Shown here piece by piece: positions 4,266-50,051 of a DNA stretch of 50,051 bases. The notes beneath the pieces were generated by a model that saw only the letters and a program-made list of their open reading frames with translations, was not told the origin of the DNA and did not search any database. The DNA is from a virus: positions 1-50,051 of IMG/VR virus record IMGVR_UViG_3300022670_000458; one strand, 5' to 3'. Within the stretch, counting starts at the first letter, position 1. Each line of letters opens with the position of its first letter. Made by a program: the position numbers and the translations under genes.

Positions 4266-4576
4266 GCGTCCTCCATAATTTTTAGGGCACGGGATACCAA
4301 ACTCTGGGCAGCGCTGCCGGACTCGTAAGGTGTGTAAGGCATTCTGGACAGATCCCCTATGAGATCATGCGCCTCTGCCAACTTCTCAGCGTCTGTCTTT
4401 ATCTTACCTGCCTGATCTTCTTCCAACTTTACCCAATCCAGCAGGTCTTTTGCAAACTGATCATTTTCGCCAGCCAACGCTAAGGCATAAGTCTGCATCG
4501 CCTTCCTACTGGCCACCGCATAGGCATCAGTCCCGCTTGGTTTCAACACCAAATACTTCGCGCGTAATCCGTCCAT
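4262..4576 (-). CDS. Hypothetical early protein (104 aa)
   Basis: ATG 4576 overlaps the upstream TGA by 1 nt (TGATG). GTG 4579 is an alternative start. Confidence 0.65.
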   Translation of the reverse strand: MDGLRAKYLVLKPSGTDAYAVASRKAMQTYALALAGENDQFAKDLLDWVKLEEDQAGKIKTDAEKLAEAHDLIGDLSRMPYTPYESGSAAQSLVSRALKIMEDA

Positions 4577-4770
4577 CACTCACCTTCTTTCAATGGTAGA
4601 GGACTGACAAAGGTGCGCGTGATCTCCGTCTCTACGTCGAAACCATGCCTACATCTAGGGCAGTACACGTCGTGAGTCCCTTCGTCGTGTACCTCGAAAA
4701 CATAATACCCATCTACAGAATGCGCTGCTACTTTACATTTGGGACAGCGGATATGTGTGGTGCTCCTCAC
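4576..4770 (-). CDS. Zinc-ribbon mini-protein (64 aa)
   Basis: GTG start in a GTGA overlap with the upstream stop. CPKC...CPRC pair. Confidence 0.65.
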   Translation of the reverse strand: MRSTTHIRCPKCKVAAHSVDGYYVFEVHDEGTHDVYCPRCRHGFDVETEITRTFVSPLPLKEGE

Positions 4771-5096
4771 GCTGCCTCCACTTCCACAAACAGGTTGTAC
4801 TCATATGAGTTTTCGCCTTTGTCAAAGCTCATAAGGTTAATGTCGTAGTTAGACGTACGCCCTTCAAGATCCGAAGCCTCGAAGTTGGCTACAGGATCAC
4901 CGCCCTGAAGCACTGCAAACAACATAGAAAGCGTTATGTCGATTGTGGTTGATGACAGCTCGCCAAGGTCCAGGTAAAACTCAGCCTCAAGAGGTCCGTC
5001 GTCTGTACCACGTTCGGCAAGGTCAAGGCGTATATCGTCAAACTCTTTCGCAATCTCTCTTTCGATGACTTCCATAATAAGTTTCTTGTTGAACAT
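4767..5096 (-). CDS. Strongly acidic early protein (109 aa, about 25 D/E versus 8 K/R)
   Basis: ATG 5096 with CTAAAGGAAAG RBS. First gene downstream of the promoter at 5129-5156. Confidence 0.7.
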   Translation of the reverse strand: MFNKKLIMEVIEREIAKEFDDIRLDLAERGTDDGPLEAEFYLDLGELSSTTIDITLSMLFAVLQGGDPVANFEASDLEGRTSNYDINLMSFDKGENSYEYNLFVEVEAA

Positions 5097-5887: not shown

Positions 5888-6697
5888 TTATTTACCGACA
5901 ACTCTGTAGTCTTTTTTACACATGACGGCATCTTCCGGGCCTTTATAGTGCGGCGCAATACGTATCATCCTGTACTGGGTACGCCCCTTACCGTAAGGCT
6001 GGCGTCGCCAGTGACCTCTAACAATGAAGCGTTTATTTATCGCTGAACCTTTACTACGCATGGATGCGTGATGCTGTACGCCGCGCCCTACAAGGATGTC
6101 GCCAGTAGGTTCGTCTATTCTACGCCTTTTACGCCCTTTACCCGTAACCACTTTCCGTGTGATCTCCGTTTGCTCATTATTTTTAGAATTTAGGTACAGT
6201 AGTGTGTGCTGCAGTACCAGAACCATCGCTACAAGCATATGCCCGTCATCGACTCCGTCAAAAAGTTTGAGAGCCAGCCCCTCATCTATTTGATGTAGCT
6301 CGCCACCAGCGTAGTTAATGTCGTCGCCCAATCCCATAAAAAATATACCATCACTTTCTTTCATAACCAACAACCAGAAGTCGTGTATGTCGTCTGGAGT
6401 GTTTACGTACGATGCGCGATAGTTAAGCATAAATACGTCGAACGGGAAGCACATGTCATCGATACATAGCCCACTCGGTAGATCTGTGTCTTCAAAAGAA
6501 GAAAGAAGCCCGCTTGATATAAAAAACGTGCGCGGATCGACATCATTCACCTTATCGCACAAAAAACCCAACTGCCCATGTATCGGTAAGAGAGCTTGAT
6601 CTGCGGTCACTGGGAGGGGTTTACGAACACCCTCCGATAACCGCCGACCTACAGGGTCTTTATGTAAGAATTCGTGTAATGTTCGTCGTTTCATCAT
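5888..6697 (-). CDS. Hypothetical early protein (269 aa) with a highly basic C-terminal third
   Basis: ORF 5888-6715. ATG 6697/6694 follows AAGGAG, which overlaps the upstream stop. C-terminus GKGRKRRRI...RFIVRGHWRRQPYGKGRTQYRMIRIAPHYKGP. Confidence 0.7.
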   Translation of the reverse strand: MMKRRTLHEFLHKDPVGRRLSEGVRKPLPVTADQALLPIHGQLGFLCDKVNDVDPRTFFISSGLLSSFEDTDLPSGLCIDDMCFPFDVFMLNYRASYVNTPDDIHDFWLLVMKESDGIFFMGLGDDINYAGGELHQIDEGLALKLFDGVDDGHMLVAMVLVLQHTLLYLNSKNNEQTEITRKVVTGKGRKRRRIDEPTGDILVGRGVQHHASMRSKGSAINKRFIVRGHWRRQPYGKGRTQYRMIRIAPHYKGPEDAVMCKKDYRVVGK

Positions 6698-6705
6698 TGT
6701 CTCCT

Positions 6706-7134
6706 TTATGCCCACTCGGCTTTTGTATATTCATCCGTGCTTATAATGATCATGTGGCCGATGTAGTCTAGCACCGCGTGCCAGGCCATGTACAGCTTCG
6801 AATCAAGGACCCCACCTTCAACATATTGATAAAGGAAGCCCCTCAGATATTTGTAGGCCTGCATGGTATCGACCAGACCTAATGACACATACTGGTACGC
6901 TACAGGCCTATAGCGGACCTTCACGGCTCTTTCATTCATAGCAGCCATGATATGCCCACAATTCTCCAAACCCTCACAGGCCATGTCGTTGGTCGTCTCA
7001 AGGCTTATGGCCAAACCACAAGACACAGCCAATCGAGCGAGATGTGTACCACCTGGTCTGTCGTACGAAATGGTTGAGTGTATCCATCCCAAAATGCTGT
7101 TGATGACCTTATCCTCTACGATGTGTGGGCTCAT
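6706..7134 (-). CDS. Hypothetical early protein (142 aa)
   Basis: ATGA overlap with the upstream gene at 7131-7134. Confidence 0.7.
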   Translation of the reverse strand: MSPHIVEDKVINSILGWIHSTISYDRPGGTHLARLAVSCGLAISLETTNDMACEGLENCGHIMAAMNERAVKVRYRPVAYQYVSLGLVDTMQAYKYLRGFLYQYVEGGVLDSKLYMAWHAVLDYIGHMIIISTDEYTKAEWA

Positions 7135-7367
7135 GATTCTTCTTTCTTTATAGTTGTGGGTTTTACATCGTCAAAGCGTATTTTGTACAGGTCCATAAGC
7201 TGGACAGCACCATCAGCAAATTGAACAATGGCGCATGTGTGCGGTCCCACAATATTGTCGTCACCTTGCGCAATGGTGTGTACACCGAAGCCTATGAATG
7301 TGGCCGTGTATTCTTCTGGCGGTTGTCTAGTCTTTGTCCATGTAAATACTGTTATTGGTCTATCCAT
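7131..7367 (-). CDS. Hypothetical early protein (78 aa), first gene of the leftward early operon
   Basis: ATG 7367 preceded by AAGGAG, with the promoter 30 nt further upstream. Confidence 0.7.
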   Translation of the reverse strand: MDRPITVFTWTKTRQPPEEYTATFIGFGVHTIAQGDDNIVGPHTCAIVQFADGAVQLMDLYKIRFDDVKPTTIKKEES

Positions 7368-7395
7368 CGTTGTCTCCTTTGTTAGTTACGCCAGA

Positions 7396-7423
7396 AGTAT
7401 ACGGTATGTTTAGTGGGTGTCAA
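7396..7423 (-). promoter_or_regulatory. Leftward near-consensus sigma70 early promoter
   Basis: Minus strand TTGACA (7423-7418), 16-nt spacer, TATACT (7401-7396). Confidence 0.6.
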
Positions 7424-7846
7424 TATATGTTTTATAGTTTATTTATATTTTATTTATACGGTATGTTATCCTCTAATACGATCTCCTAATAAATGAAAAG
7501 TGTATACGAGATACGTTCTCCTGATAAATTTATACGTAGTTCTCGTACGATATTTCAAGTCATTGTGGTTATTAGACTTATGGCTATAATTGTCACGGAA
7601 TGGTGCTTGATGTACTAGCAACATACTGGTATCAAAGGCTTTAGATACTAATTTCGTTTTGACGGAATGTAACGGAATGTGTTTTTGGGCGATATAAGTC
7701 TTTACTACCAAAGGGATTAACCCTTCTATACATCTAATACATCAAAATCCGAGCTTACAAAGAGGAACCAAGGTACGGATGTATAGTAGTTATGCTGTTA
7801 TACGTGGTAATATACGCTATAATATACGTTACCTGTATACGTTATA

Positions 7847-7866
7847 ATATATATATATATATATAT
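7847..7866. repeat. (AT)10 dinucleotide tract
   Basis: Read directly: atatatatatatatatatat. Confidence 0.9.
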
Positions 7867-8032
7867 TAATATATTAATACATAAAGTACTGAAAACAAAG
7901 GACTTACGGGTACATCAACTACCTTTCACACAATTCTACGTAGTTTATGGCGTATTTTATACCGTATTTCGCTACTACATATAAAGACGTAGTCAAGCAT
8001 AATATTTATATTTTATTTATAACGTATACTAG

Positions 8033-8061
8033 TTGACAATTCACTTCAACTTTGGTAAAGT
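8033..8061 (+). promoter_or_regulatory. Rightward near-consensus sigma70 early promoter
   Basis: TTGACA (8033-8038), 17-nt spacer, TAAAGT (8056-8061), followed by AGGAGG and the ATG at 8086. Confidence 0.7.
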
Positions 8062-8085
8062 ACGGCTGTCCAAGGAGGGCTGCTA

Positions 8086-8310
8086 ATGGCATACAAACGC
8101 TCAACTAAACTTATCAAACGCTCTATGGTGGTACGTGACTATGGCTACTACGTCTATACGGTGCTGCGGCGCAGGCATGGGCTCACAGCCACACAGACGT
8201 ACACCATGATGCGTGGGCTTGACATGGTGACCATGTTGGCCATGGCTGAGATGGAGGGCTACAGGAGGCTGTACGTGGGCGTGAGTGGAGTACACCGTGA
8301 CTGTGCGTAG
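8086..8310 (+). CDS. Hypothetical immediate-early protein (74 aa)
   Basis: AGGAGG 8 nt upstream of the ATG, directly downstream of the promoter. Confidence 0.7.
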   Translation: MAYKRSTKLIKRSMVVRDYGYYVYTVLRRRHGLTATQTYTMMRGLDMVTMLAMAEMEGYRRLYVGVSGVHRDCA

Positions 8311-8458
8311 GCCCTTCAGCCCTGAGTGCTGGTCGCATGGTACTGTGGTGCATGGTGAGCAGTGCCTAGAGTGCGATAAAATATCTCCTGTTGACGTAGG
8401 CACTGGGCTGTGTGTTGATTGCCATGAGGCAAACAAACCCGGTAGACACCAAGAATAA
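8303..8458 (+). CDS. Possible Cys/His-rich mini-protein (51 aa, below the ORF-track cutoff)
   Basis: GTG 8303 overlaps the upstream stop. Own translation: VRRPFSPECWSHGTVVHGEQCLECDKISPVDVGTGLCVDCHEANKPGRHQE. Confidence 0.35.
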   Translation: MRRPFSPECWSHGTVVHGEQCLECDKISPVDVGTGLCVDCHEANKPGRHQE

Positions 8459-8483
8459 ATAATAAATAAATAATAAATTATAG

Positions 8484-8511
8484 TTGACAATCGTAGACTC
8501 CGATGTATAGT
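8484..8511 (+). promoter_or_regulatory. Rightward near-consensus sigma70 promoter with an A/T-rich upstream tract
   Basis: TTGACA (8484-8489), 16-nt spacer, TATAGT (8506-8511), preceded by (AATAAAT)n. Confidence 0.7.
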
Positions 8512-8536
8512 GTAGATAACTAAAGGAGTCAGCACC

Positions 8537-8677
8537 ATGCGCATCACAACTACAATCGTCCACCCTGACCTACTACGGCAACGGATGAAAGATAACTATA
8601 AGCCCAAGCCTAAGGACACTGCCGACTTTGCTCATGTACTGCGCAAGGCAATGAAGGCAAGAGGTCTACCTAAATAA
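8537..8677 (+). CDS. Small basic protein (46 aa, below the ORF-track cutoff)
   Basis: CTAAAGGAG RBS 8 nt upstream of ATG 8537. Own translation: MRITTTIVHPDLLRQRMKDNYKPKPKDTADFAHVLRKAMKARGLPK. Confidence 0.55.
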   Translation: MRITTTIVHPDLLRQRMKDNYKPKPKDTADFAHVLRKAMKARGLPK

Positions 8678-8821
8678 TATTATATTTATATTGTAATCCC
8701 ACAGTGACAGGGGTAGGCAGGGGTACCCCCACCCCCTATGTGTATACAATGTGGCCGCATGTGCCGCGCGTCTGATCGGATTGAGTTTTTGAAATGTTTT
8801 AGAAAATAGAGAGAGACACAA

Positions 8822-9004
8822 ATGAAAAAGTATTGCATAGACTGTAAACACCTGAAGTCGCCGTACTGGGACGAGGCGGAGTGCCACGCACCAGGAAATA
8901 CGACGACGTACGACAACTGGCTACATGAAGCGCATGCTCGTAAGAAACATCCAAAGAAGATAAACAAGCGTAACGATTGCACGATGTTTGAGGGGAGCGC
9001 GTAA
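8822..9004 (+). CDS. Hypothetical Cys-containing protein (60 aa)
   Basis: ORF with CIDC...C...C. Its stop overlaps the next start (TAATG). Confidence 0.5.
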   Translation: MKKYCIDCKHLKSPYWDEAECHAPGNTTTYDNWLHEAHARKKHPKKINKRNDCTMFEGSA

Positions 9005-9303
9005 TGGAACAGATAAAATTACAGGGACAGCCAGGCGATCGTAGCCAGGCACCAGACTTCGACCTTCTCGAATTTACTACGCATGGTATAAGAGTCGAAC
9101 TGATGGCGGCCGACCACTTCCTAATACGTTCCGACGCGACGGGGAAGTTGTTAGGTGACGTGTGGCCATGCACGAACACCCATTACGGGGACTGGGCCTA
9201 CGTTTTCGAACCTACGCCAGAACACACTGCCGATAAGAGTCGGCATCAGGCTGTGCACAGTGCTTTTAAAATTTTGACACGTATACTGCATGGTGCGGTA
9301 TGA
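9004..9303 (+). CDS. Hypothetical protein (99 aa)
   Basis: Start and stop are both coupled to neighbouring genes. Confidence 0.65.
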   Translation: MEQIKLQGQPGDRSQAPDFDLLEFTTHGIRVELMAADHFLIRSDATGKLLGDVWPCTNTHYGDWAYVFEPTPEHTADKSRHQAVHSAFKILTRILHGAV

Positions 9304-9806
9304 AAAAAGAGGAACGATTTACTAAGTGCGGTCGATGTAAAAAACACGGCCCGTGCTATGCTATCTCCGATGTGGTAGAGGTTGTGCATTGGAGATGCCG
9401 GCGTTGTTGGAAGATGGAAACGTTTGGTGATCACTACAGTACGGCGAGTATGCTCGTCAAAGCATTTGTAAACCCTTTTGAGAGCATAGAGAAAGAGACA
9501 AAGATGAACGATGAAATGGCTAAACAAGATGTTCTTCAGACGCTACGAGACCTTATCTACACCCAAGGTACGCTTACGTACAAAGAGGCGTATGAGGATC
9601 TGATACGGGCTTGTGAGAAGGAGAAGGTGGAGGTAGACGAAGCGCTACAGCTCAAGTATGATTTGTTGGAGTCTTCGATAAATAAAGATCGTAAGGCCCT
9701 CGGTACCCTTTACGACGATTTAATGACCAGGAACGCAGACCTAGTCCACGTAAACGAGGTACTGACGAATAAGCTCGCTGCTTATTGTGGGGTGACAAAT
9801 GGGTGA
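9300..9806 (+). CDS. Hypothetical protein (168 aa) with an N-terminal zinc ribbon and a C-terminal coiled coil
   Basis: ATGA overlap at 9300. CGRC...CRRC. Confidence 0.65.
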   Translation: MKKEERFTKCGRCKKHGPCYAISDVVEVVHWRCRRCWKMETFGDHYSTASMLVKAFVNPFESIEKETKMNDEMAKQDVLQTLRDLIYTQGTLTYKEAYEDLIRACEKEKVEVDEALQLKYDLLESSINKDRKALGTLYDDLMTRNADLVHVNEVLTNKLAAYCGVTNG

Positions 9807-9903
9807 GGAATCAGATGCCCTATCCTCCATGGGCGATGAGAGCGAGGACGGGTGTGTTTATTGTGGGTACGACGATCATAACTGCAGGTGTGATGAGTTA
9901 TGA
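9799..9903 (+). CDS. Possible acidic Cys-rich mini-protein (34 aa)
   Basis: Own translation MGEESDALSSMGDESEDGCVYCGYDDHNCRCDEL. Overlaps both neighbouring genes. Confidence 0.35.
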   Translation: MGEESDALSSMGDESEDGCVYCGYDDHNCRCDEL

Positions 9904-10055
9904 ATTATAACGTAATAGCAGTAGACGTAGGTGTAACAGAACCCTTAGACTACGTCGTACTCCGTAAAGACGGTACCGAAGTGTTCCGCACAAAGGATCG
10001 TATAGAGGCATACACGTTTGCAGAGAGAATGCATATCGAGAAAGAGAGAAAATAA
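9900..10055 (+). CDS. Possible small protein (51 aa)
   Basis: ATGA overlap at 9900. Own translation MNYNVIAVDVGVTEPLDYVVLRKDGTEVFRTKDRIEAYTFAERMHIEKERK. Confidence 0.45.
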   Translation: MNYNVIAVDVGVTEPLDYVVLRKDGTEVFRTKDRIEAYTFAERMHIEKERK

Positions 10056-10064
10056 AAATATACG

Positions 10065-10163
10065 GGCGGTGTGGTGAAATTGGTAAACACGCACGACAGT
10101 GTGCGGGGTAGCTGATCCGGAAAGCCCTCGCAATTGCAGGTTCGAATCCTGTCGCCGCCCCCA
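10065..10163 (+). tRNA. tRNA-like gene (99 nt including encoded CCA) with no canonical anticodon arm; anticodon undetermined
   Basis: Acceptor GGCGGTG/CGCCGCC (one G-U). D arm GTG-AAATTGGTAAA-CAC. T arm GCAGG-TTCGAAT-CCTGT. Discriminator C plus CCA. 45 nt between the D and T arms do not fold as a 5-7-5 anticodon arm in any register. Confidence 0.6.
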
Positions 10164-10170
10164 ATAACAA

Positions 10171-10226
10171 GGACCCCTGATGAACCGCTCCTAGATTAGC
10201 CTCTTCAAACGGTGAGTCAGGGGTCC
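10171..10226 (+). other. Extended RNA hairpin immediately 3' of the tRNA-like gene (possible processing site)
   Basis: GGACCCCTGA (10171-10180) pairs with TCAGGGGTCC (10217-10226). A 3x3 internal loop is followed by ACCG/CGGT and a 22-nt apical loop. No U-tract. Confidence 0.4.
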
Positions 10227-10249
10227 GACCTAACAGAGAGAGACAACTG

Positions 10250-10402
10250 ATGAACGATTACGGAGACGATCACGAACTGCACGCTATGGAATGTCTGTCG
10301 TGCACCCACGAATGGACGGCTGTAACACCGCTCGATATAGACGACGTGCTGCTCACCTGCCCAGAGTGTGGGCATGAGTCCGGCGTCGGTATTTATAACT
10401 AA
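10250..10402 (+). CDS. Zinc-ribbon mini-protein (50 aa, below the ORF-track cutoff)
   Basis: Own translation MNDYGDDHELHAMECLSCTHEWTAVTPLDIDDVLLTCPECGHESGVGIYN. Confidence 0.5.
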   Translation: MNDYGDDHELHAMECLSCTHEWTAVTPLDIDDVLLTCPECGHESGVGIYN

Positions 10403-10428
10403 AACTTAACCAACTAAAGGAGAAAACG

Positions 10429-10707
10429 ATGAATGAGTATTTAACCGAGGTAGAAAAGGTAGCCGATAAGTTGCAAGAGGTTTCACATGAGCTGGACGAG
10501 GCTAAGAAGGTGCTACCTTCAGAAGCGTTATTTATGTTTGCTGCCTGGCTGACTAGCCGACGGGTACCCCTTACTGTGGGCGCTTCATGTAACGCCGCAC
10601 CTATCTGTGAAATGGTCGCTGAGTTCATTGAGCATAACGATCTCAAGCCTCTGCGCGATGAGGTGTATCCCCACAACCTGAGCCACCCGCCCGAAGAAGG
10701 CGAGTAA
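10429..10707 (+). CDS. Hypothetical protein (92 aa)
   Basis: CTAAAGGAG RBS. Stop overlaps the next start. Confidence 0.7.
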   Translation: MNEYLTEVEKVADKLQEVSHELDEAKKVLPSEALFMFAAWLTSRRVPLTVGASCNAAPICEMVAEFIEHNDLKPLRDEVYPHNLSHPPEEGE

Positions 10708-10949
10708 TGAGCACTGAGCAAGCACAGCGGGAATACGATTGGTTCTACATCACCGAAGTCACCCTTGATACGCTCCGCAAGAAAAGACGTTTCGTCATTC
10801 GCGACAAAAAATTCAAACTGAAGCGGAGCCGCATACAGTGGGATGATGGTTTGGAGTGCTACGTCTTCGCCCCGGCCAACAAAGTAATCTGGAACGCCGA
10901 AGCCCTTGCCGATATTGTGGAATTCTTGGCGGAAGTGAATGACGTATAA
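10707..10949 (+). CDS. Hypothetical protein (80 aa)
   Basis: TAATG coupling at both ends. Confidence 0.7.
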   Translation: MSTEQAQREYDWFYITEVTLDTLRKKRRFVIRDKKFKLKRSRIQWDDGLECYVFAPANKVIWNAEALADIVEFLAEVNDV

Positions 10950-11197
10950 TGTCGGCACACAACGCATGCACGTGCCCCGATCGTAAATACGCAAAGAAAC
11001 ACCATTGGGTTGTTACGATGCGGAACTGTAATTATTCAGCGTTCAACGGCTACCACTATACGCCGAGCGACTACTCGCAGGTTCATTGTACGGGGAAGCA
11101 TTGTAATGGCACCTGGCGGTCGAAGTCAGCTTACGTTACCCACCTTCCAGATATGAAGCTTGAAGATGTAAACAACGAGAGATACCCTCAAGAATAA
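10949..11197 (+). CDS. Hypothetical Cys/His-rich protein (82 aa)
   Basis: Coupled start. CTC...C...C..C pattern. Confidence 0.7.
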   Translation: MSAHNACTCPDRKYAKKHHWVVTMRNCNYSAFNGYHYTPSDYSQVHCTGKHCNGTWRSKSAYVTHLPDMKLEDVNNERYPQE

Positions 11198-11201
11198 AAC
11201 T

Positions 11202-11229
11202 TTGACACGCAGAACAACGCGGCTATAAT
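11202..11229 (+). promoter_or_regulatory. Rightward consensus sigma70 promoter
   Basis: TTGACA (11202-11207), 16-nt spacer, TATAAT (11224-11229). Confidence 0.7.
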
Positions 11230-11252
11230 CATCAACTCTAAAGGAGATAAAA

Positions 11253-11405
11253 ATGGACGAATCATTTGAAGACGAACTAAAAGACTTGCTGGCTAAGTAC
11301 TGCAATAGCGGGATCAAGGTTTCCGAAGTCATCGGTATCATGGCTGTGGTTTCTCACGAGCTCATTGTTGCCCAAACCGCAGTACACGCGCAGGAGTCAG
11401 AATGA
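11253..11405 (+). CDS. Small acidic protein (50 aa, below the ORF-track cutoff)
   Basis: CTAAAGGAG RBS. ATGA overlap with the next gene. Own translation MDESFEDELKDLLAKYCNSGIKVSEVIGIMAVVSHELIVAQTAVHAQESE. Confidence 0.55.
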   Translation: MDESFEDELKDLLAKYCNSGIKVSEVIGIMAVVSHELIVAQTAVHAQESE

Positions 11406-11815
11406 AACAGAGCACATTCGAACAACTACATTGGGAGCCCACATTGACTGTGGGTTTCCTACCTGACAGCCGCAACAAAAAGAAAAAGTTGTGGTACGTC
11501 GACTGCGTCAAAGAAGACGTGCAGCACATTCCCGGGTACAACTGTATCCTGGCTGACAACATCAGTTCCGAAGAGGACGCCAAGTGGATCGCCGAGGCAA
11601 TCCTTATGCGTGTTCGTATGGAACGTATTGCCGAGCCCTTCCACCAGAAACGTATCGAAGAAAAAGAGCACTTGGTCAGCCCGTACCAGACTGGCGTGAC
11701 GAATGGCCTGATCGCCGCTATTGCTTTGACCAAAGGCGAGAAGCCTGTCATTCTGACTCGCAAAGATGTAGCCGATGCCCAGCCGAAAGTGATCATTCCT
11801 AATGGCGGCGTGTAA
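11402..11815 (+). CDS. Hypothetical protein (137 aa)
   Basis: ATGA-coupled ORF. Confidence 0.7.
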   Translation: MKQSTFEQLHWEPTLTVGFLPDSRNKKKKLWYVDCVKEDVQHIPGYNCILADNISSEEDAKWIAEAILMRVRMERIAEPFHQKRIEEKEHLVSPYQTGVTNGLIAAIALTKGEKPVILTRKDVADAQPKVIIPNGGV

Positions 11816-12119
11816 GGCCGAGGTCTATCCCAAGCATTTCAAGGCCGGCGACAGCCCAACCAAGCGTTGTACACGCTCCGAGCACTGGGATGGGTACTGT
11901 ACGCAGCATTACCACATGAAAGCAGGCATACCGACCAACAAAGCGGCCCCTATTGTGGGCACGGACGACCGCGACAAGCTCATAGCGAGGCTTCAGGGGC
12001 AATTGAACTACGTGGTGGGCAAATTACACGTAGTAGCCGACAAAATCGAAGCAAGGCACTTCCATGTGGCCGCTACGGTGGTCTCAGAAACTTTAGAAGA
12101 GCTCGAAAGTAAGCATTGA
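11802..12119 (+). CDS. Hypothetical protein (105 aa)
   Basis: ORF overlapping the upstream gene by 14 nt. Confidence 0.6.
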   Translation: MAACKAEVYPKHFKAGDSPTKRCTRSEHWDGYCTQHYHMKAGIPTNKAAPIVGTDDRDKLIARLQGQLNYVVGKLHVVADKIEARHFHVAATVVSETLEELESKH

Positions 12120-12150
12120 CGGCGGTATTGACGGCATATAGACTTTTAGG

Positions 12151-12867
12151 ATGGCTACAGGCATCCCAAGGACACGTTCAGAGCTAGAACTAAGCTACCA
12201 ACCTAACGGTATTGGCGGTATTACAGCTCAGACCCAACTTGACCACGTCGCTTCGATATTCGTCAGCGGTGCGGAACTAAAAGTAGCCTACGAAGCCGAA
12301 GCAAACACCAACGCATACACTGATACAGAGAAAACTAAGCTTGCCGGTATAGAGGCAGGCGCCAAGGACGATCAATCCGACGCCGAGATCAAGACAGCCT
12401 ACGAAAACAACGCCGATACCAACGCTTTTACTAACGCCCTACTGACCAAGCTGGACGGTATTGAGTCCTTAGCAGAAGTAAACAACATTTCAGACCCGGA
12501 CGCGGCAACGCTTACGGGCGCTGGTGCCGCAGATGCGCTGCACTCGCATGTCAAAAAGGCCATGGCATCGTTTACCAGCGACACCGACACCAATACGCTT
12601 GGGATCAAGTCAATCTACCGTGTACCAAGTCATACGGGCGATGTGACGCTTACGATTTCAAGCGCAGACATTGCGACCGGCAGTGCAACATCAGTTTGGG
12701 AATTTACAGTCAAAGATACGAGCGGTAACCTCGTTTCCAACGGTAGAAAAATAAACATTGTCACAGAGGGCGCCGAAACTATAGACGGTGTAGCCACTGT
12801 AGCCATCACAGCCGATTATGGTGTTGTCAGATTGTTTTCTGACGGAAGCAATCTATTTAGCCAGTAG
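12151..12867 (+). CDS. Tail fibre protein with phage tail-fibre repeats
   Basis: Two tandem about 29-aa repeats (LKVAYEAEANTNAYTDTEKTKLAGIEAGA and IKTAYENNADTNAFTNALLTKLDGIESLA), typical of phage fibre shafts. Confidence 0.75.
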   Translation: MATGIPRTRSELELSYQPNGIGGITAQTQLDHVASIFVSGAELKVAYEAEANTNAYTDTEKTKLAGIEAGAKDDQSDAEIKTAYENNADTNAFTNALLTKLDGIESLAEVNNISDPDAATLTGAGAADALHSHVKKAMASFTSDTDTNTLGIKSIYRVPSHTGDVTLTISSADIATGSATSVWEFTVKDTSGNLVSNGRKINIVTEGAETIDGVATVAITADYGVVRLFSDGSNLFSQ

Positions 12868-12875
12868 GGGTAACG

Positions 12876-14555
12876 ATGAGCGGACCAAATTTCAATCTAA
12901 CGACGCAGCAGGCGGCAACAAAGAATCCATTGATCATAGATGTGTACAATGCTGCGCAACTACCTCTAACTTTAGCACCTGACGGTGTCATGCGGTTTAA
13001 AGCCGCGCTTGGGACAAAGTACATTATTCACCCCGGCGTTCTTTTACCGCGTATAGAGATCCCACCGTTTGTTGATCCGGCCGCTGTCGAGACCATCGAA
13101 TTTACGGCAGCCGTCCAGGCACAGTTTGTACCTATTATGGGCAGCACAATCCCACACTTCTGGGGTAGGAATATAAACTCGCTTCTTCTACGTAGCATCG
13201 GTTTTGTCGATACAACACCACACACAACGAAGCTTTTCGATCTTGTGGGCGGGACTAACCTAAGCGCTGTTATTTTGGATCTAGTAAACATATTCATGTT
13301 CAAAGAGGTCGGTAATGTTGTCGATCTAACTGTAGTTACCACTGGTGGGTTCTTTGTAGATGTCGAAAGAGGCCTTGTTTCGCGTAATAGCGGCCCCGGA
13401 TTTCTGTCGTCGTTTACGAATGGACGCATTACTAGCTTTTTTGCTACGGCCACTAAGTCTGCCGGACTTTGTTTCCTAGGAAACCAGAGTACCGCTAATG
13501 TAAGTATCAATAATTTTGAACTTGGTGCAGCAGATGCGATAATATGTGTTGACAGCGCTTTGATCGGAAATATCGATATCATTTCGAACTCGTTTGATGG
13601 TGTTGCAAGTTTTTTTGAACCACCTATTTCTAACGCAATTACGGCTTTCGCTTCTGCGGATGTAGCGATCACAAGCTTTAGTAATTCTGTAGCCAATCCT
13701 GGTACGCACACTGATATTAACTTTACGAACCCGACGTTGCTCATTAGAGGCCAAACGATTTTGATATCAGGCGAGGCCGCTTACGATGGTACGCATGTTG
13801 TTACAGGTGTTTCGACGAACCAGCTACGCGTAGAAATTGAAGTAATACATTCGACAAGTGGTGCGGGAGTTCTGGAACAAACAAAAGTAACATCGACTAA
13901 TCATAGACTTGTTAGAGACCAGACGAATACTATCTCTGGTACAACAAGTTACGACGGTACACGTAAGCTTCTAGACATTGTGGATGATAATAATTTTCTC
14001 ATTCCAGCAGCATTTATTGCAGATGATGCGACCGGTACAGTAGCGGCTACCAGCGGCGACGAAAAGACACCGGAAATAACTTCTGTCGTAAATGGTCAGG
14101 CCCCAAACAGCCGTACGATTGGTTTCGGTCAGATGAACGGGAATGCGACAGTGACTACTGTCGCCTTGTCAAACACGTACCAAGCGATGGACGTATCCAC
14201 TGTGACTAACAACACAGTCAGTCAGCGGTTTACCCTGATCGACGCTGTGGAAGGTGTTTATCGCTACGACGGTGTCAAACAAATTACGGCTACGATCATC
14301 GGGCTTGTTTCTGGCTTCAAGTCAGGCAGCACAGCTAACTATAGATTTGCGATATCCATCAACGGAGCAATTCCCGCATTCGGCAGCGTTCCGTATGCTC
14401 CGCTAGAAATAAAAACAACAAAAACAGCTATAACTGTTCTTAACGCTGTAATTCTTACTCCCAACGATACTATTCAAATAATGGTGGCTGGCGACAGCAC
14501 ATCAGACAACCTAACGATATCCGATTTCAATATTGAAGTACGAGGCGACCAATGA
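12876..14555 (+). CDS. Large structural protein (559 aa), putative fibre or receptor-binding component
   Basis: Long ORF directly after the fibre gene. Composition is rich in T/S/N/G/V, as in beta-rich proteins. No motif assigned. Confidence 0.7.
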   Translation: MSGPNFNLTTQQAATKNPLIIDVYNAAQLPLTLAPDGVMRFKAALGTKYIIHPGVLLPRIEIPPFVDPAAVETIEFTAAVQAQFVPIMGSTIPHFWGRNINSLLLRSIGFVDTTPHTTKLFDLVGGTNLSAVILDLVNIFMFKEVGNVVDLTVVTTGGFFVDVERGLVSRNSGPGFLSSFTNGRITSFFATATKSAGLCFLGNQSTANVSINNFELGAADAIICVDSALIGNIDIISNSFDGVASFFEPPISNAITAFASADVAITSFSNSVANPGTHTDINFTNPTLLIRGQTILISGEAAYDGTHVVTGVSTNQLRVEIEVIHSTSGAGVLEQTKVTSTNHRLVRDQTNTISGTTSYDGTRKLLDIVDDNNFLIPAAFIADDATGTVAATSGDEKTPEITSVVNGQAPNSRTIGFGQMNGNATVTTVALSNTYQAMDVSTVTNNTVSQRFTLIDAVEGVYRYDGVKQITATIIGLVSGFKSGSTANYRFAISINGAIPAFGSVPYAPLEIKTTKTAITVLNAVILTPNDTIQIMVAGDSTSDNLTISDFNIEVRGDQ

Positions 14556-14758
14556 TCACTTTAGACGAACACAATGCAGAAGCTTTGGCGACGTTCAAGG
14601 CCAGCCATGTGCCTGCTTTGAATGGTATCGCCTGTAACGCGTGCGGCGAAGAACTCAAAGATGAGATGCCCGGCTACCTGGTAATGCTGGACCCACCGCA
14701 AGAGCGCGTGAAGTGCTCTAATTGTGGGTTCGCTGGTTTCCGTGTGGTGAGTGCGTAA
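14552..14758 (+). CDS. Zinc-ribbon protein (68 aa)
   Basis: ATGA overlap. CNAC...CSNC. Confidence 0.6.
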   Translation: MITLDEHNAEALATFKASHVPALNGIACNACGEELKDEMPGYLVMLDPPQERVKCSNCGFAGFRVVSA

Positions 14759-14760
14759 CC

Positions 14761-14895
14761 ATGCCCACACGTCCCGGAAGCTTTAACAACGATCACAACA
14801 GTGATCATGATCTGTATATCCCTATCTCGTTTAGGCTTGCTACGGTCAGAAAGATTTCATTTACCTTAGAAGTTGTTGAAAGGATCGCCCTGTGA
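14761..14895 (+). CDS. Possible 44-aa protein bridging an apparent gap
   Basis: ATG 14761 lies 2 nt after the upstream stop. Its TGA overlaps the GTG start of the next gene (GTGA). Confidence 0.3.
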   Translation: MPTRPGSFNNDHNSDHDLYIPISFRLATVRKISFTLEVVERIAL

Positions 14896-15194
14896 ATATT
14901 CACGTTGATGACATCGGTACTATTTTTGAGGTGATTGTTGAGGCCGATGGGTTACCTATAGATATTTCGGCCGCCACGACCAAAGAGTTTTGCTTCAAAC
15001 TGCCAGACGGTGTTCTCAAGACTCGGGCGGCATCATTTGTGACGGACGGTACAGACGGTAAGCTGCAATACCTAAGTGTGGCTGGCGATCTATCTATCGC
15101 GGGCACGTACACGCTTCAGACACACGTTATAACGCCTGGGGAAGAGTTCCACACGGCCGTGGACACCTTTGTGGTTTTATCGAATATCTGCTAA
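14892..15194 (+). CDS. Small beta-rich structural protein (100 aa), Ig-like / BppU-N-like by pattern
   Basis: GTG start. Pattern DIGTIFEV...G.PIDISAAT...F.FKLPDG...G.Y.LQ. Confidence 0.6.
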   Translation: MNIHVDDIGTIFEVIVEADGLPIDISAATTKEFCFKLPDGVLKTRAASFVTDGTDGKLQYLSVAGDLSIAGTYTLQTHVITPGEEFHTAVDTFVVLSNIC

Positions 15195-49666: not shown

Positions 49667-50051
49667 TATACGATCTCTGGTAAGACTTCGTCTACCTTAG
49701 GCTCAACAACCTCTAAAGTGTGCGACCCGGGCTTGGTAGTAATGATGGTGTTTACGATCTTGCGTTGTTTTTCGTCAAGCTTTTTGTATTCGGATACAGA
49801 TAGTTCGGCTTTCCATTTGAACAAGCGACCGGCTACGGCTTGATCCATCTTCTTTATACATGCGTCAATTTCGGGACGTTTGGGTAAAGACATATTGTGT
49901 ATGATGACAGCTTTGAGAGTACGCCCGTTTTCCAAGTCTATTTTCTGTGTCCCAGTCTTATCTACGTTGAATTGCTTGGCAACGATGGCGGCTCGTAGCG
50001 CACGCTCTTGGTTCTGCCAAGCCGTGGCATTATGTTTAGCCTCTTGCTGGG
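49666..50051 (-). CDS. 3' part of the wrap-around gene (5' end runs off the window; see 1-193)
   Basis: The frame is open to the window end. The track's TTG start at 49935 is internal to the reconstructed 144-aa ORF. Confidence 0.7.
   Translation of the reverse strand, partial: QQEAKHNATAWQNQERALRAAIVAKQFNVDKTGTQKIDLENGRTLKAVIIHNMSLPKRPEIDACIKKMDQAVAGRLFKWKAELSVSEYKKLDEKQRKIVNTIITTKPGSHTLEVVEPKVDEVLPEIV
49908..50051. repeat. Second copy of the 144-bp terminal repeat
   Basis: Exact match to positions 1-144. Confidence 0.95.

Follow-up and report, generated by a model that had tools for sequence, protein, structure and literature searches.

What is a gene that has the outer parts of a tRNA around a center in which no anticodon arm can be folded? 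The question is raised by the virus record IMGVR_UViG_3300022670_000458 of IMG/VR. The whole 50,051-nt stretch of DNA that was analyzed is referred to here as the window, and the element in question is a 99-nt transfer RNA (tRNA)-like gene on its + strand (10065-10163). An earlier note, made from the letters alone, had proposed that the element could be a tRNA with an unusual insertion or intron, a decayed tRNA, or a tRNA mimic that serves as a decoy, a primer, or a processing handle. In this study, the element was found to be a truncated class II tRNA derivative, and neither an intron-bearing nor a decoding tRNA. The insertion reading was given up; decay and a role as mimic or processing handle both still stand and are weighed below.

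The element reads GGCGGUG-UG-GUG-AAAUUGGUAAA-CAC-(45 nt)-GCAGG-UUCGAAU-CCUGU-CGCCGCC-C-CCA, and every part of the tRNA shell described in the earlier note is present in it. The 5' strand of the acceptor stem, GGCGGUG (10065-10071), forms seven of seven pairs with 10153-10159, one of them G.U. U8 (T10072), G9, and a D arm of class II, tRNA-Leu type occupy 10072-10090. The D arm itself (10074-10090; GTG-AAATTGGTAAA-CAC in the DNA) has a 3-bp stem GUG/CAC and an 11-nt loop AAAUUGGUAAA with A14 and G18G19. The T arm GCAGG-UUCGAAU-CCUGU (10136-10152) was recognized in the sequence and in the Rfam alignment. The 3' acceptor strand CGCCGCC, the discriminator C73 (C10160), and an encoded CCA (10161-10163) complete the gene (10153-10163). 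The nucleotides of the tertiary interactions are complete in the sequence (U8, A14, G18G19, G53-C61, T54-Psi55-C56, and A58). With the Rfam tRNA model RF00005, the element scored 39.9 bits (gathering score, 29; E = 4.6e-5 across the whole window) and was the sole Rfam match in the 50-kb window, with posterior probability '*' throughout the D- and T-arm regions. Acceptor stem, discriminator and CCA positions, and D and T arms are therefore those of a canonical decoding tRNA. The 3-bp D stem, the 11-nt loop, and the variable-arm hairpin described below are those of a class II, Leu-type shell; covariation does not apply to a single sequence. A73 is the major LeuRS identity element in bacteria, and the window has C10160 at this position. 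Taken together, the sequence strongly supports a real tRNA-derived gene of a class II, tRNA-Leu-type lineage that circulates in uncultivated phages. There is equally strong support for an intact top half and elbow and for an anticodon stem-loop cut down to a 4-bp hairpin with a GACA loop.

The center (10091-10135) separates the D and T arms by 45 nt, as counted before. Every register of a 5-bp stem and 7-nt loop within it was enumerated. None has five pairs, in agreement with the earlier hand fold, and a canonical arm with U33 and purine 37 is absent; the best registers, 10104-10120 (CGGGG/UAGCUGA/UCCGG) and 10116-10132, have four pairs and no U33. In the RF00005 alignment, 37 nt are inserted or unaligned at the 15 anticodon-arm positions. 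The two helices that had been proposed for this region exist: a perfect 5-bp hairpin at 10090-10105 with the 6-nt loop GACAGU, and a 7-bp stem formed by 10102-10108 and 10126-10132. The minimum free energy (MFE) fold in context is a five-way junction, and the fold constrained to the tRNA shell is identical to it (-38.1 kcal/mol, RNAfold). The junction consists of an 8-bp acceptor helix, the 3-bp D stem, a mini-hairpin, a long hairpin, an AAUU linker, and the T arm. The eighth acceptor pair would be contributed by G-1 (10064), which can pair with the discriminator C10160 as in tRNA-His; RNAfold pairs both in context. The mini-hairpin of the MFE fold, GCAC-GACA-GUGU (10091-10102), has no 7-nt anticodon loop. 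Straight after U10102 follows the long hairpin (10103-10131), GCGGGG-UA-GCU-GAUCCGGAA-AGC-CCCUCGC, a 29-nt variable arm with 6 bp (GCGGGG/CCCUCGC), a UA bulge, 3 bp (GCU/AGC), and a 9-nt loop. In the linker AAUU (10132-10135), the last U lies where U48 would pair with A15 (Levitt pair), and a U preceding the T stem is the rule among related elements. As modeled, the five-way fold is the topology of a class II tRNA.

Intact relatives indicate which part of the center is abnormal. A scan of viral contigs for the D arm and T loop of the window found intact tRNAs with the loop CUGUUAA or CUGUUUA, anticodon GUU, G73, and CCA. These phage class II tRNA(GUU) genes with a long variable arm are called group A here (loci L001, L002, L043, L125, and others). 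Their variable arms are 28-30 nt long, and compensatory changes occur in both the anticodon stem and the variable arm; this phage tRNA lineage therefore normally has an arm of about 30 nt. What is truly anomalous is the reverse of an insertion: an anticodon stem-loop shortened to a 12-nt mini-hairpin. G26-CACGA-C32 is the same in the window and in four long-arm tRNA(GUU) variants, and after the D stem the four variants read G-CACGA-C...GUG-U and the window G-CACGA-C-A-GUG-U. Judged from this alignment, the mini-hairpin is most simply read as a collapsed anticodon arm, in which G26.U44 and the top three stem pairs are kept and the loop is GACA. We prefer the view that GACA replaced the lower anticodon stem and the 7-nt loop, with a net loss of about 7 nt, although this cannot be proven. 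An alternative alignment without indels, obtained with a covariance model, places GUG at positions 34-36, next to A33, with two of five stem pairs and a destroyed variable arm. Because the anticodon stem-loop is reduced to a 4-bp hairpin, the element cannot act as a decoding tRNA.

The same comparison brings in a young pseudogene, a long-arm class II phage tRNA that lost its anticodon loop in one small deletion (about U33-C40) and has been functionless since. We regard this as somewhat unlikely. G26-CACGA-C32 and GUG-U44 flank the loop of the mini-hairpin just as they form the anticodon-stem halves in the intact genes of L125, L084, and L043, and one deletion and one substitution account for the center. 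Furthermore, the element is a singleton without orthologs, it has no class II synthetase-like partner gene, unlike its intact relatives, and its center is of unexceptional stability. On the other side, the acceptor, T, and variable-arm stems have diverged from those of the intact relatives and still pair fully (7/7, 5/5, and 9 bp). Since the diverged stems pair perfectly, the structure was under selection in the lineage up to recent times at least. The change to C73, with a G-1 that fits it, is a second one and independent of the first; useless DNA is purged fast from phage genomes; and anticodon-less shells persist under purifying selection elsewhere, also inside intact tRNA arrays, as described below.

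A decoding role was considered from the side of gene prediction. ARAGORN called tRNA-Thr(tgt), i.e., anticodon UGU, at exactly 10065-10163. Its drawing has a stem ACGAC/GGGGU with the non-pairs G.G and A.G, a loop AGUGUGC with G33, and a 26-nt unpaired variable region, and the intron, tmRNA (transfer-messenger RNA), and low-threshold modes gave the same drawing every time. We consider the tRNA-Thr(UGU) a forced fit. The earlier note had said that a canonical cloverleaf returned by a standard finder would show its hand fold to be wrong; a call was made in form, but in substance its stem is mismatched and position 33 is G. It is very improbable that the element is a working tRNA, whether the tRNA-Thr(UGU) of ARAGORN, a His-type tRNA with an irregular anticodon arm, or one matured by an editing or splicing step. 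Such a role is favored by the ARAGORN call itself and by the covariance-model register, in which GUG falls at 10099-10101, together with G-1 and C73, which fit His identity; G10064 and C10160 are paired in the MFE fold, and a G at -1 has a 1-in-4 chance. A long-arm tRNA-His with G-1:C73 is known in one phage tRNA array (L026), and 6-nt anticodon loops are frequent in ARAGORN calls on phage loci (35/278, not dereplicated). However, GUG in a would-be anticodon loop is found only in the no-indel register with A33, the stem has two of five pairs in the His register and three of five in the Thr register, and position 33 is A or G and not the near-universal U. Both registers also break the 9-bp variable arm, which belongs to the thermodynamically preferred fold. 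There is no intron solution, and an intact His version of the window scaffold had 0 matches in IMG/VR. As far as its sequence goes, the acceptor end with C73 and G-1 mimics that of tRNA-His; it has neither the A73 of tRNA-Leu nor G73.

Other identities were searched for and rejected. ARAGORN with -i and with -i0,60 gave no intron solution, and no manual division of the 17-19-nt loop yields U33 and purine 37. No intron family was found in Rfam at E <= 10 (9850-10450), and a group I intron would need far more room than the insert offers. Since 29 of the 45 nt fold as variable arm, the insertion or intron proposed earlier is not supported. The Rfam E-value scan of 9850-10450 returned the tRNA and noise only, with no ribozyme or other RNA in or beside the element, and a hammerhead core was absent on inspection of the element. 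A tmRNA or tmRNA-like gene was rejected: ARAGORN -m gave none, there was no Rfam tmRNA match, a D stem is present, and the element has only 99 nt. The center was also rejected as an antisense or guide sequence, with no reverse-complement match of >=10 nt elsewhere in the window and one direct 11-mer, which is at chance level.

The kinship of the shell is with tRNA-Leu. Positions 10068-10091 are identical (24/24 nt) to the tRNA-Leu(GAG) of Synechococcus phage S-CBWM1, and a tRNA-Leu(UAG) of Dehalococcoidia agrees with the T arm and the 3' acceptor strand in all 24 nt. When a covariance model was made from the phage class II tRNAs with long arms, the window element scored 49.5 bits (E about 1e-11); near members left out of model building (L006 and L084) scored 87-108 bits. 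Membership of the long-arm tRNA(GUU) group was rejected, as ordinary tRNA-Leu genes score no lower than the window element. On account of these scores, the element is classed as a Leu-type derivative of class II, whose membership of group A cannot be demonstrated. The likeness to group A comprises the D-arm sequence, G26-CACGA-C32, the encoded CCA, and a variable arm of 28-30 nt directly after U44. The group A genes differ in having an intact 5/7/5 arm with covariation, G73, and an adjacent synthetase-core gene. GUU, G73, a member-like score, and an adjacent PF00152 gene are all missing from the window element, and tblastn found no homolog of the synthetase-core partner in the window. Group A tRNAs were found on viral contigs only.

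Several side observations concern these relatives. Group A was seen at L001, L002, L009, L014, L043, L045, L062, L072, L091, L104, L108, L109, L125, and L143. Its partner gene encodes only the catalytic core of a class II aminoacyl-tRNA synthetase (~300 aa; 301 aa; PF00152, E = 6e-14), shorter than full-length D/K/N synthetases, and lies a median of 13 nt upstream of the tRNA (24 loci). In L125, for instance, the gene is at 426-1331 and the tRNA 13 nt downstream. By its arrangement, gene and tRNA look like a dedicated synthetase-tRNA pair. The tRNA-His of L026 (206-294, - strand) is an 89-nt gene with anticodon GUG, G-1:C73, and a long variable arm CUGC-GAAA-GCAG in a phage tRNA array; tRNA-His is normally of class I, and this one is built in the style of class II.

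The likeness to tRNA-Leu was considered at the level of DNA as well, as phages often integrate into genes for this tRNA. That the element is a phage attachment site (attP) or an integration scar from a host tRNA-Leu gene is scarcely credible, the least probable of the readings considered here. It is true that T7-like cyanophages have tRNA-Leu-like stretches and that 24 nt of the element, the T arm with the 3' acceptor strand, agree with a bacterial tRNA-Leu. Nevertheless, an attP site carries one part of a tRNA, and in the element the two halves occur together and form pairs. The window ORFs (open reading frames) tested yielded no integrase. The exact D-arm and T-loop sequences with a long center had 0 matches among 185,579 cellular species, one genome each. 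A tRNA-fragment attP was rejected on these grounds, i.e., the full shell, the lack of an integrase among the ORFs scanned, and the empty genome scan for the shell.

Is the element shared with related phages? The window has an exact 144-nt terminal direct repeat (1-144 and 49908-50051), and for this reason it represents a complete circular assembly of ~49.9 kb; a copy of the sequence in Logan has 49,937 bp. The genes are those of a siphovirus and include an NrS-1-type primase-polymerase, DNA polymerase A, terminase, portal, a lambda-like tape measure protein, and a GpJ-type tip attachment protein. The relatives of the primase-polymerase are 47-51% identical and of the Pseudomonas phage 73 type. 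None of the collections searched contained a close relative of the phage. Nothing near the element was found in 50,697 phage records (megablast and blastn), and in plasmids the T-arm end of the query had only short, weak matches, in unannotated places. The neighboring ORF at 9300-9806 is an ORFan among 5.8 billion proteins. Protein-seeded scans of viral contigs gave nothing or a tail-fiber domain only, and tblastx of 7001-15000 against loci L001-L035 gave a tail-fiber match only. A scan of metagenome contigs with a D/T-arm pattern found five other odd tRNA-like genes and no homolog of the window center. Other truncated-arm variants of the window lineage had 0 matches in two scans, the first of which used a mis-specified pattern. 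The element looks like a lineage-specific acquisition.

Shells without an anticodon arm are common in other phages. A relaxed pattern (AATTGGTARACRC, 42-58 nt, GGTTCRARTCC) matched >119 viral contigs. Among the matches listed, 98 distinct elements have a sound acceptor stem; 21 have an anticodon arm of canonical type and 77 have none. This gives at least 77 distinct Leu-type shells without a canonical anticodon arm, on at least 106 viral contigs. Also among the matches listed, A73 is present in 65 of the 77, most have no encoded CCA, and the centers, 39-62 nt long, are different from nearly every lineage to the next. Nine contigs share one 93-nt element with 100% identity; its upstream flanks in L010 and L022 are ~80% identical by eye, and the downstream flank of L010 is unrelated. 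In a gut-phage lineage with 19 loci, diversity is 0.021 in the center, 0.047 in the shell, and 0.19-0.28 in the flanks, and the acceptor stem has two compensatory pair changes. L115 has 16 normal tRNAs and at least 10 copies of one shell (AGUCAGG...CCUGACU-A), and between each copy and the next, one or two small ORFs of the same strand adjoin it directly. Among the matches listed, 34% of the anticodon-less elements start <=30 nt from the stop codon of a same-strand ORF, compared with 7% of random positions. In L030, the layout of a mini-hairpin and a long arm, as in the window, occurs within an otherwise canonical array of 20 tRNAs. The identity of the 93-nt element, the gut-phage diversity, L115, the abutting ORFs, and L030 show that the centers of such shells can be functional, and the anticodon-less shells look maintained in other phages. 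No conserved protein partner was found across 35 distinct centers. The window element is like these shells (L005, L030, L036, and L115) in its Leu-type shell, its non-canonical center in a family where centers span 39-62 nt, and its adjoining small same-strand ORFs. They differ from it in that they mostly have A73 and no encoded CCA, and their centers are unrelated in sequence to that of the window. A common function or descent is not established. We found no description of such a Leu-type anticodon-less family of phages in the literature, although coverage was incomplete and an earlier description is possible.

The loci with such shells show further features of their own. The gut-phage lineage is present in L036, L037, L054, L058, L071, and others (e.g., L037, 4185-4285). 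Its 47-nt center is the most conserved part, for which a pseudoknot is predicted to be possible (GUAUG/CAUAC and GAUAGAUU/AAUCUAUC). This shell is preceded, about 90 nt upstream, by a tRNA-like gene of 72 nt, whose anticodon loop has 6 nt (UUUCUA or UUUUUA). In the L115 array (7183-12210), the shell AGUCAGG...ACAGGUUCGAAUCCUGUCCUGACUA encloses differing centers, with total lengths of 89-145 nt. A permuted tmRNA (RF04321, 56.9 bits; 4568-4789) closes the 20-tRNA phage array of L030. ARAGORN made 278 calls on the fetched viral loci, of which 35 have an anticodon loop of 6 nt and 11 one of 8 nt; these counts are not dereplicated and include many copies from the same lineages. Non-standard anticodon-loop sizes seem common among the tRNA-like genes of these phages.

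How could a tRNA shape be of use without decoding? The surroundings of the element offer a clue. It is set in a run of small + strand ORFs, and the stop codon of a 51-aa ORF (9900-10055, +) ends 9 nt before it; the setting agrees with the earlier note, which had placed the element in a promoter-driven early operon. The nearest strong sigma-70-like promoter, TTGACA-16-TATAGT (8484-8511, +), and a second one (8033-8061, +), both consensus matches only, lie farther upstream. No terminator-like site was found on the + strand between these promoters and the element, and no promoter-like site on the + strand just upstream of it. Past the CCA, a predicted A/U-rich single-stranded linker AAUAACA (10164-10170, +) is a candidate entry site for a 3' endonuclease. 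A strong 56-nt hairpin (10171-10226, +) starts 7 nt past the CCA; it has 17-nt arms (82% complementary), an internal loop, and no U tract, and is the top G+C-rich inverted repeat in 7000-13000. The fold of 10040-10240 has z = -3.3. The hairpin had no terminator call and no Rfam family, and could be a candidate processing (RNase III-type) site or a 5' stabilizer of the next mRNA. The next gene is a 50-aa zinc-ribbon ORF (10250-10402, +) with a weak Lar-like match.

From this setting, the identity of the shell, the anticodon-less shells of other phages, and a precedent in phage T4 described below, we favor a non-decoding functional tRNA-shaped RNA, a processing handle and possibly a ligand for tRNA-binding enzymes, whose expression, RNase P cleavage, and stability we infer; to this we give about an even chance of being right. 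The element would be co-transcribed within the early + strand operon. RNase P recognizes the acceptor/T minihelix and a 3' RCCA, and both sequence determinants are found in the element. Host RNase P would cut the 5' end, and G-1:C73 may move the cut by one nucleotide in the fashion of tRNA-His. RNase E or exonucleases would trim within the A/U-rich linker past the CCA. The mRNA of the 51-aa ORF would thereby be cut off from the downstream message, of which the hairpin at 10171-10226 would become the 5' end, and an RNA of ~100 nt would be freed that is presumably stable because it is tRNA-shaped. The freed RNA would have no part in translation; it would act by means of its top half, which would punctuate processing and possibly be a ligand that neither decodes nor can be cleaved. 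Factors that bind tRNAs may be occupied by it, HisRS being one candidate through G-1:C73.

Several results weigh against this processing-handle reading. The three closest phages (primase-polymerase 48-49% identical) have no tRNA or tRNA-like gene in the matching region, from which it follows that the element is dispensable for this phage type. The evidence for the element is one sequence on one contig from one sample, and nothing in it shows selection on this center or gene. The stability of the center is not above that of shuffled sequences (-15.7 vs -11.8 +/- 2.6 kcal/mol, z = -1.5). One deletion of ~7 nt in the anticodon loop would give the same picture in a recently dead gene. C73 and the encoded CCA are unlike the bulk of the anticodon-less family, and the covariance model gives ordinary tRNA-Leu 50-58 bits, so that the window is no closer to tRNA(GUU).

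A use of the same top half outside processing would be a decoy or sponge. The processed RNA would bind a host factor that recognizes the top half of tRNAs, be uncleavable or unusable, and so protect the host tRNAs or titrate the factor; candidates are a tRNA-targeting defense nuclease or transferase, or HisRS through G-1:C73. Such a decoy we consider improbable. In keeping with a decoy, the element has kept its top half and elbow and has no anticodon loop, and G-1:C73, which is present, is the main HisRS identity element. The early accessory region also encodes an AcrVA2-like protein (5888-6715, -) and has the weak Lar-like match. Yet no defense system or partner can be named, a G at -1 is expected in one of four cases anyway, and there is no evidence of conservation for the window element. 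To our knowledge, the phage counter-defense tRNAs known so far are full decoding tRNAs with altered anticodon loops.

The closest characterized precedent is the species 1 RNA of phage T4 (rnaC). It is likewise phage-encoded and has a canonical T arm CCGGGTTCGAATCCCGG, an acceptor-like terminal helix, and no anticodon arm; its gene lies beside the T4 tRNA genes and carries the annotation of a small stable RNA, and it has no Rfam tRNA call. The T4 RNA differs in that it is 139 nt long, is extended on the 5' side, and has a weak D region, and its sequence is not similar to that of the window element. The latter, in turn, combines a textbook class II D arm with an encoded CCA and stands alone in an early operon and not in a tRNA cluster. 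As far as we know, the function of the T4 species 1 and 2 RNAs (rnaC and rnaD) is still unexplained.

The use of a tRNA shape as a cleavage signal is known from mitochondrial tRNA punctuation and from the RNase P-processed C4 RNA of phages P1 and P7. In plant mitochondria, t-elements are tRNA-shaped cleavage signals for RNase P and RNase Z in a longer transcript, and define the ends of mRNAs and small RNAs (PMC1920247). The resemblance of these three systems to the window element is functional; they occur in other organisms and share no homology with it, and the processing of the window element is so far predicted. Among non-translating tRNA-like genes, the tRNA-Other (pseudo-tRNA) of Bacillus cereus has regulatory effects or is retained (PMC3399842). 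Irregular allo-tRNA-like genes likewise have no role in translation and are nevertheless regulatory or retained (PMC7609411). Both, unlike the window element, are chromosomal bacterial genes with recognizable anticodon arms, other shells, and other settings.

If the RNA is made and maintained, this phage uses the tRNA shape beyond translation, as punctuation or as a ligand of host factors. The dozens of distinct anticodon-less Leu-type shells in viral contigs suggest that this is not a one-off. Taken alone, the window element is a singleton; it is of value because it points to a large population of tRNA-shaped phage genes that have no anticodon arm. Because the element cannot decode, automatic filing as a phage tRNA-Thr, with adaptation to codon usage as its purpose, would be wrong; the finding bears on phage tRNA censuses, which count every ARAGORN or tRNAscan match as a decoding tRNA. 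Beyond the window, we tentatively propose, as a possibility with the greater weight against it, a widespread uncatalogued phage class of non-decoding tRNA-shaped RNAs. The Leu-type shell would be a scaffold for excision by RNase P and RNase Z and for stability, with a lineage-specific cargo of 40-95 nt in place of the anticodon arm. Such RNAs might serve as punctuation in operons of small accessory genes and as carriers of small functional RNAs, for example decoys, antitoxin-like pseudoknots, or regulators. With its C73 and encoded CCA, the window element would belong to the class as a divergent case, and the T4 species 1 and 2 RNAs would be long-known examples. If true, this would give a handle on the function of the latter.

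Some minor features of the element and of its genome were also recorded. The apical loop of the variable arm, GA-UCCGGA-A (10114-10122), has a 6-nt palindrome within 9 nt (~6% by chance), and the loop motif GACGUCU(A/G)A, palindromic too, is common to the long arms of L030, L077, and L057. Kissing-loop dimerization or a protein site is conceivable for such palindromic apical loops. In the window, the - strand ORF at 5888-6715 (275 aa; 268 aa in the Logan record) has a precomputed AcrVA2-like match (PF26125; phrog_15934), and our own Pfam scan gave no family for it; with the weak Lar-like match, this suggests an early region with an anti-defense flavor. A perfect sigma-70 consensus (TTGACA, 16 nt, TATAAT; 12/12) lies at 11202-11229 in the small-gene block, ~1 kb downstream of the element. 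Very A+T-rich nested palindromes with TATATA runs (7800-7890) lie between divergent blocks of small genes on the - and + strands, and this stretch is, from its sequence, a candidate origin or divergent promoter region.

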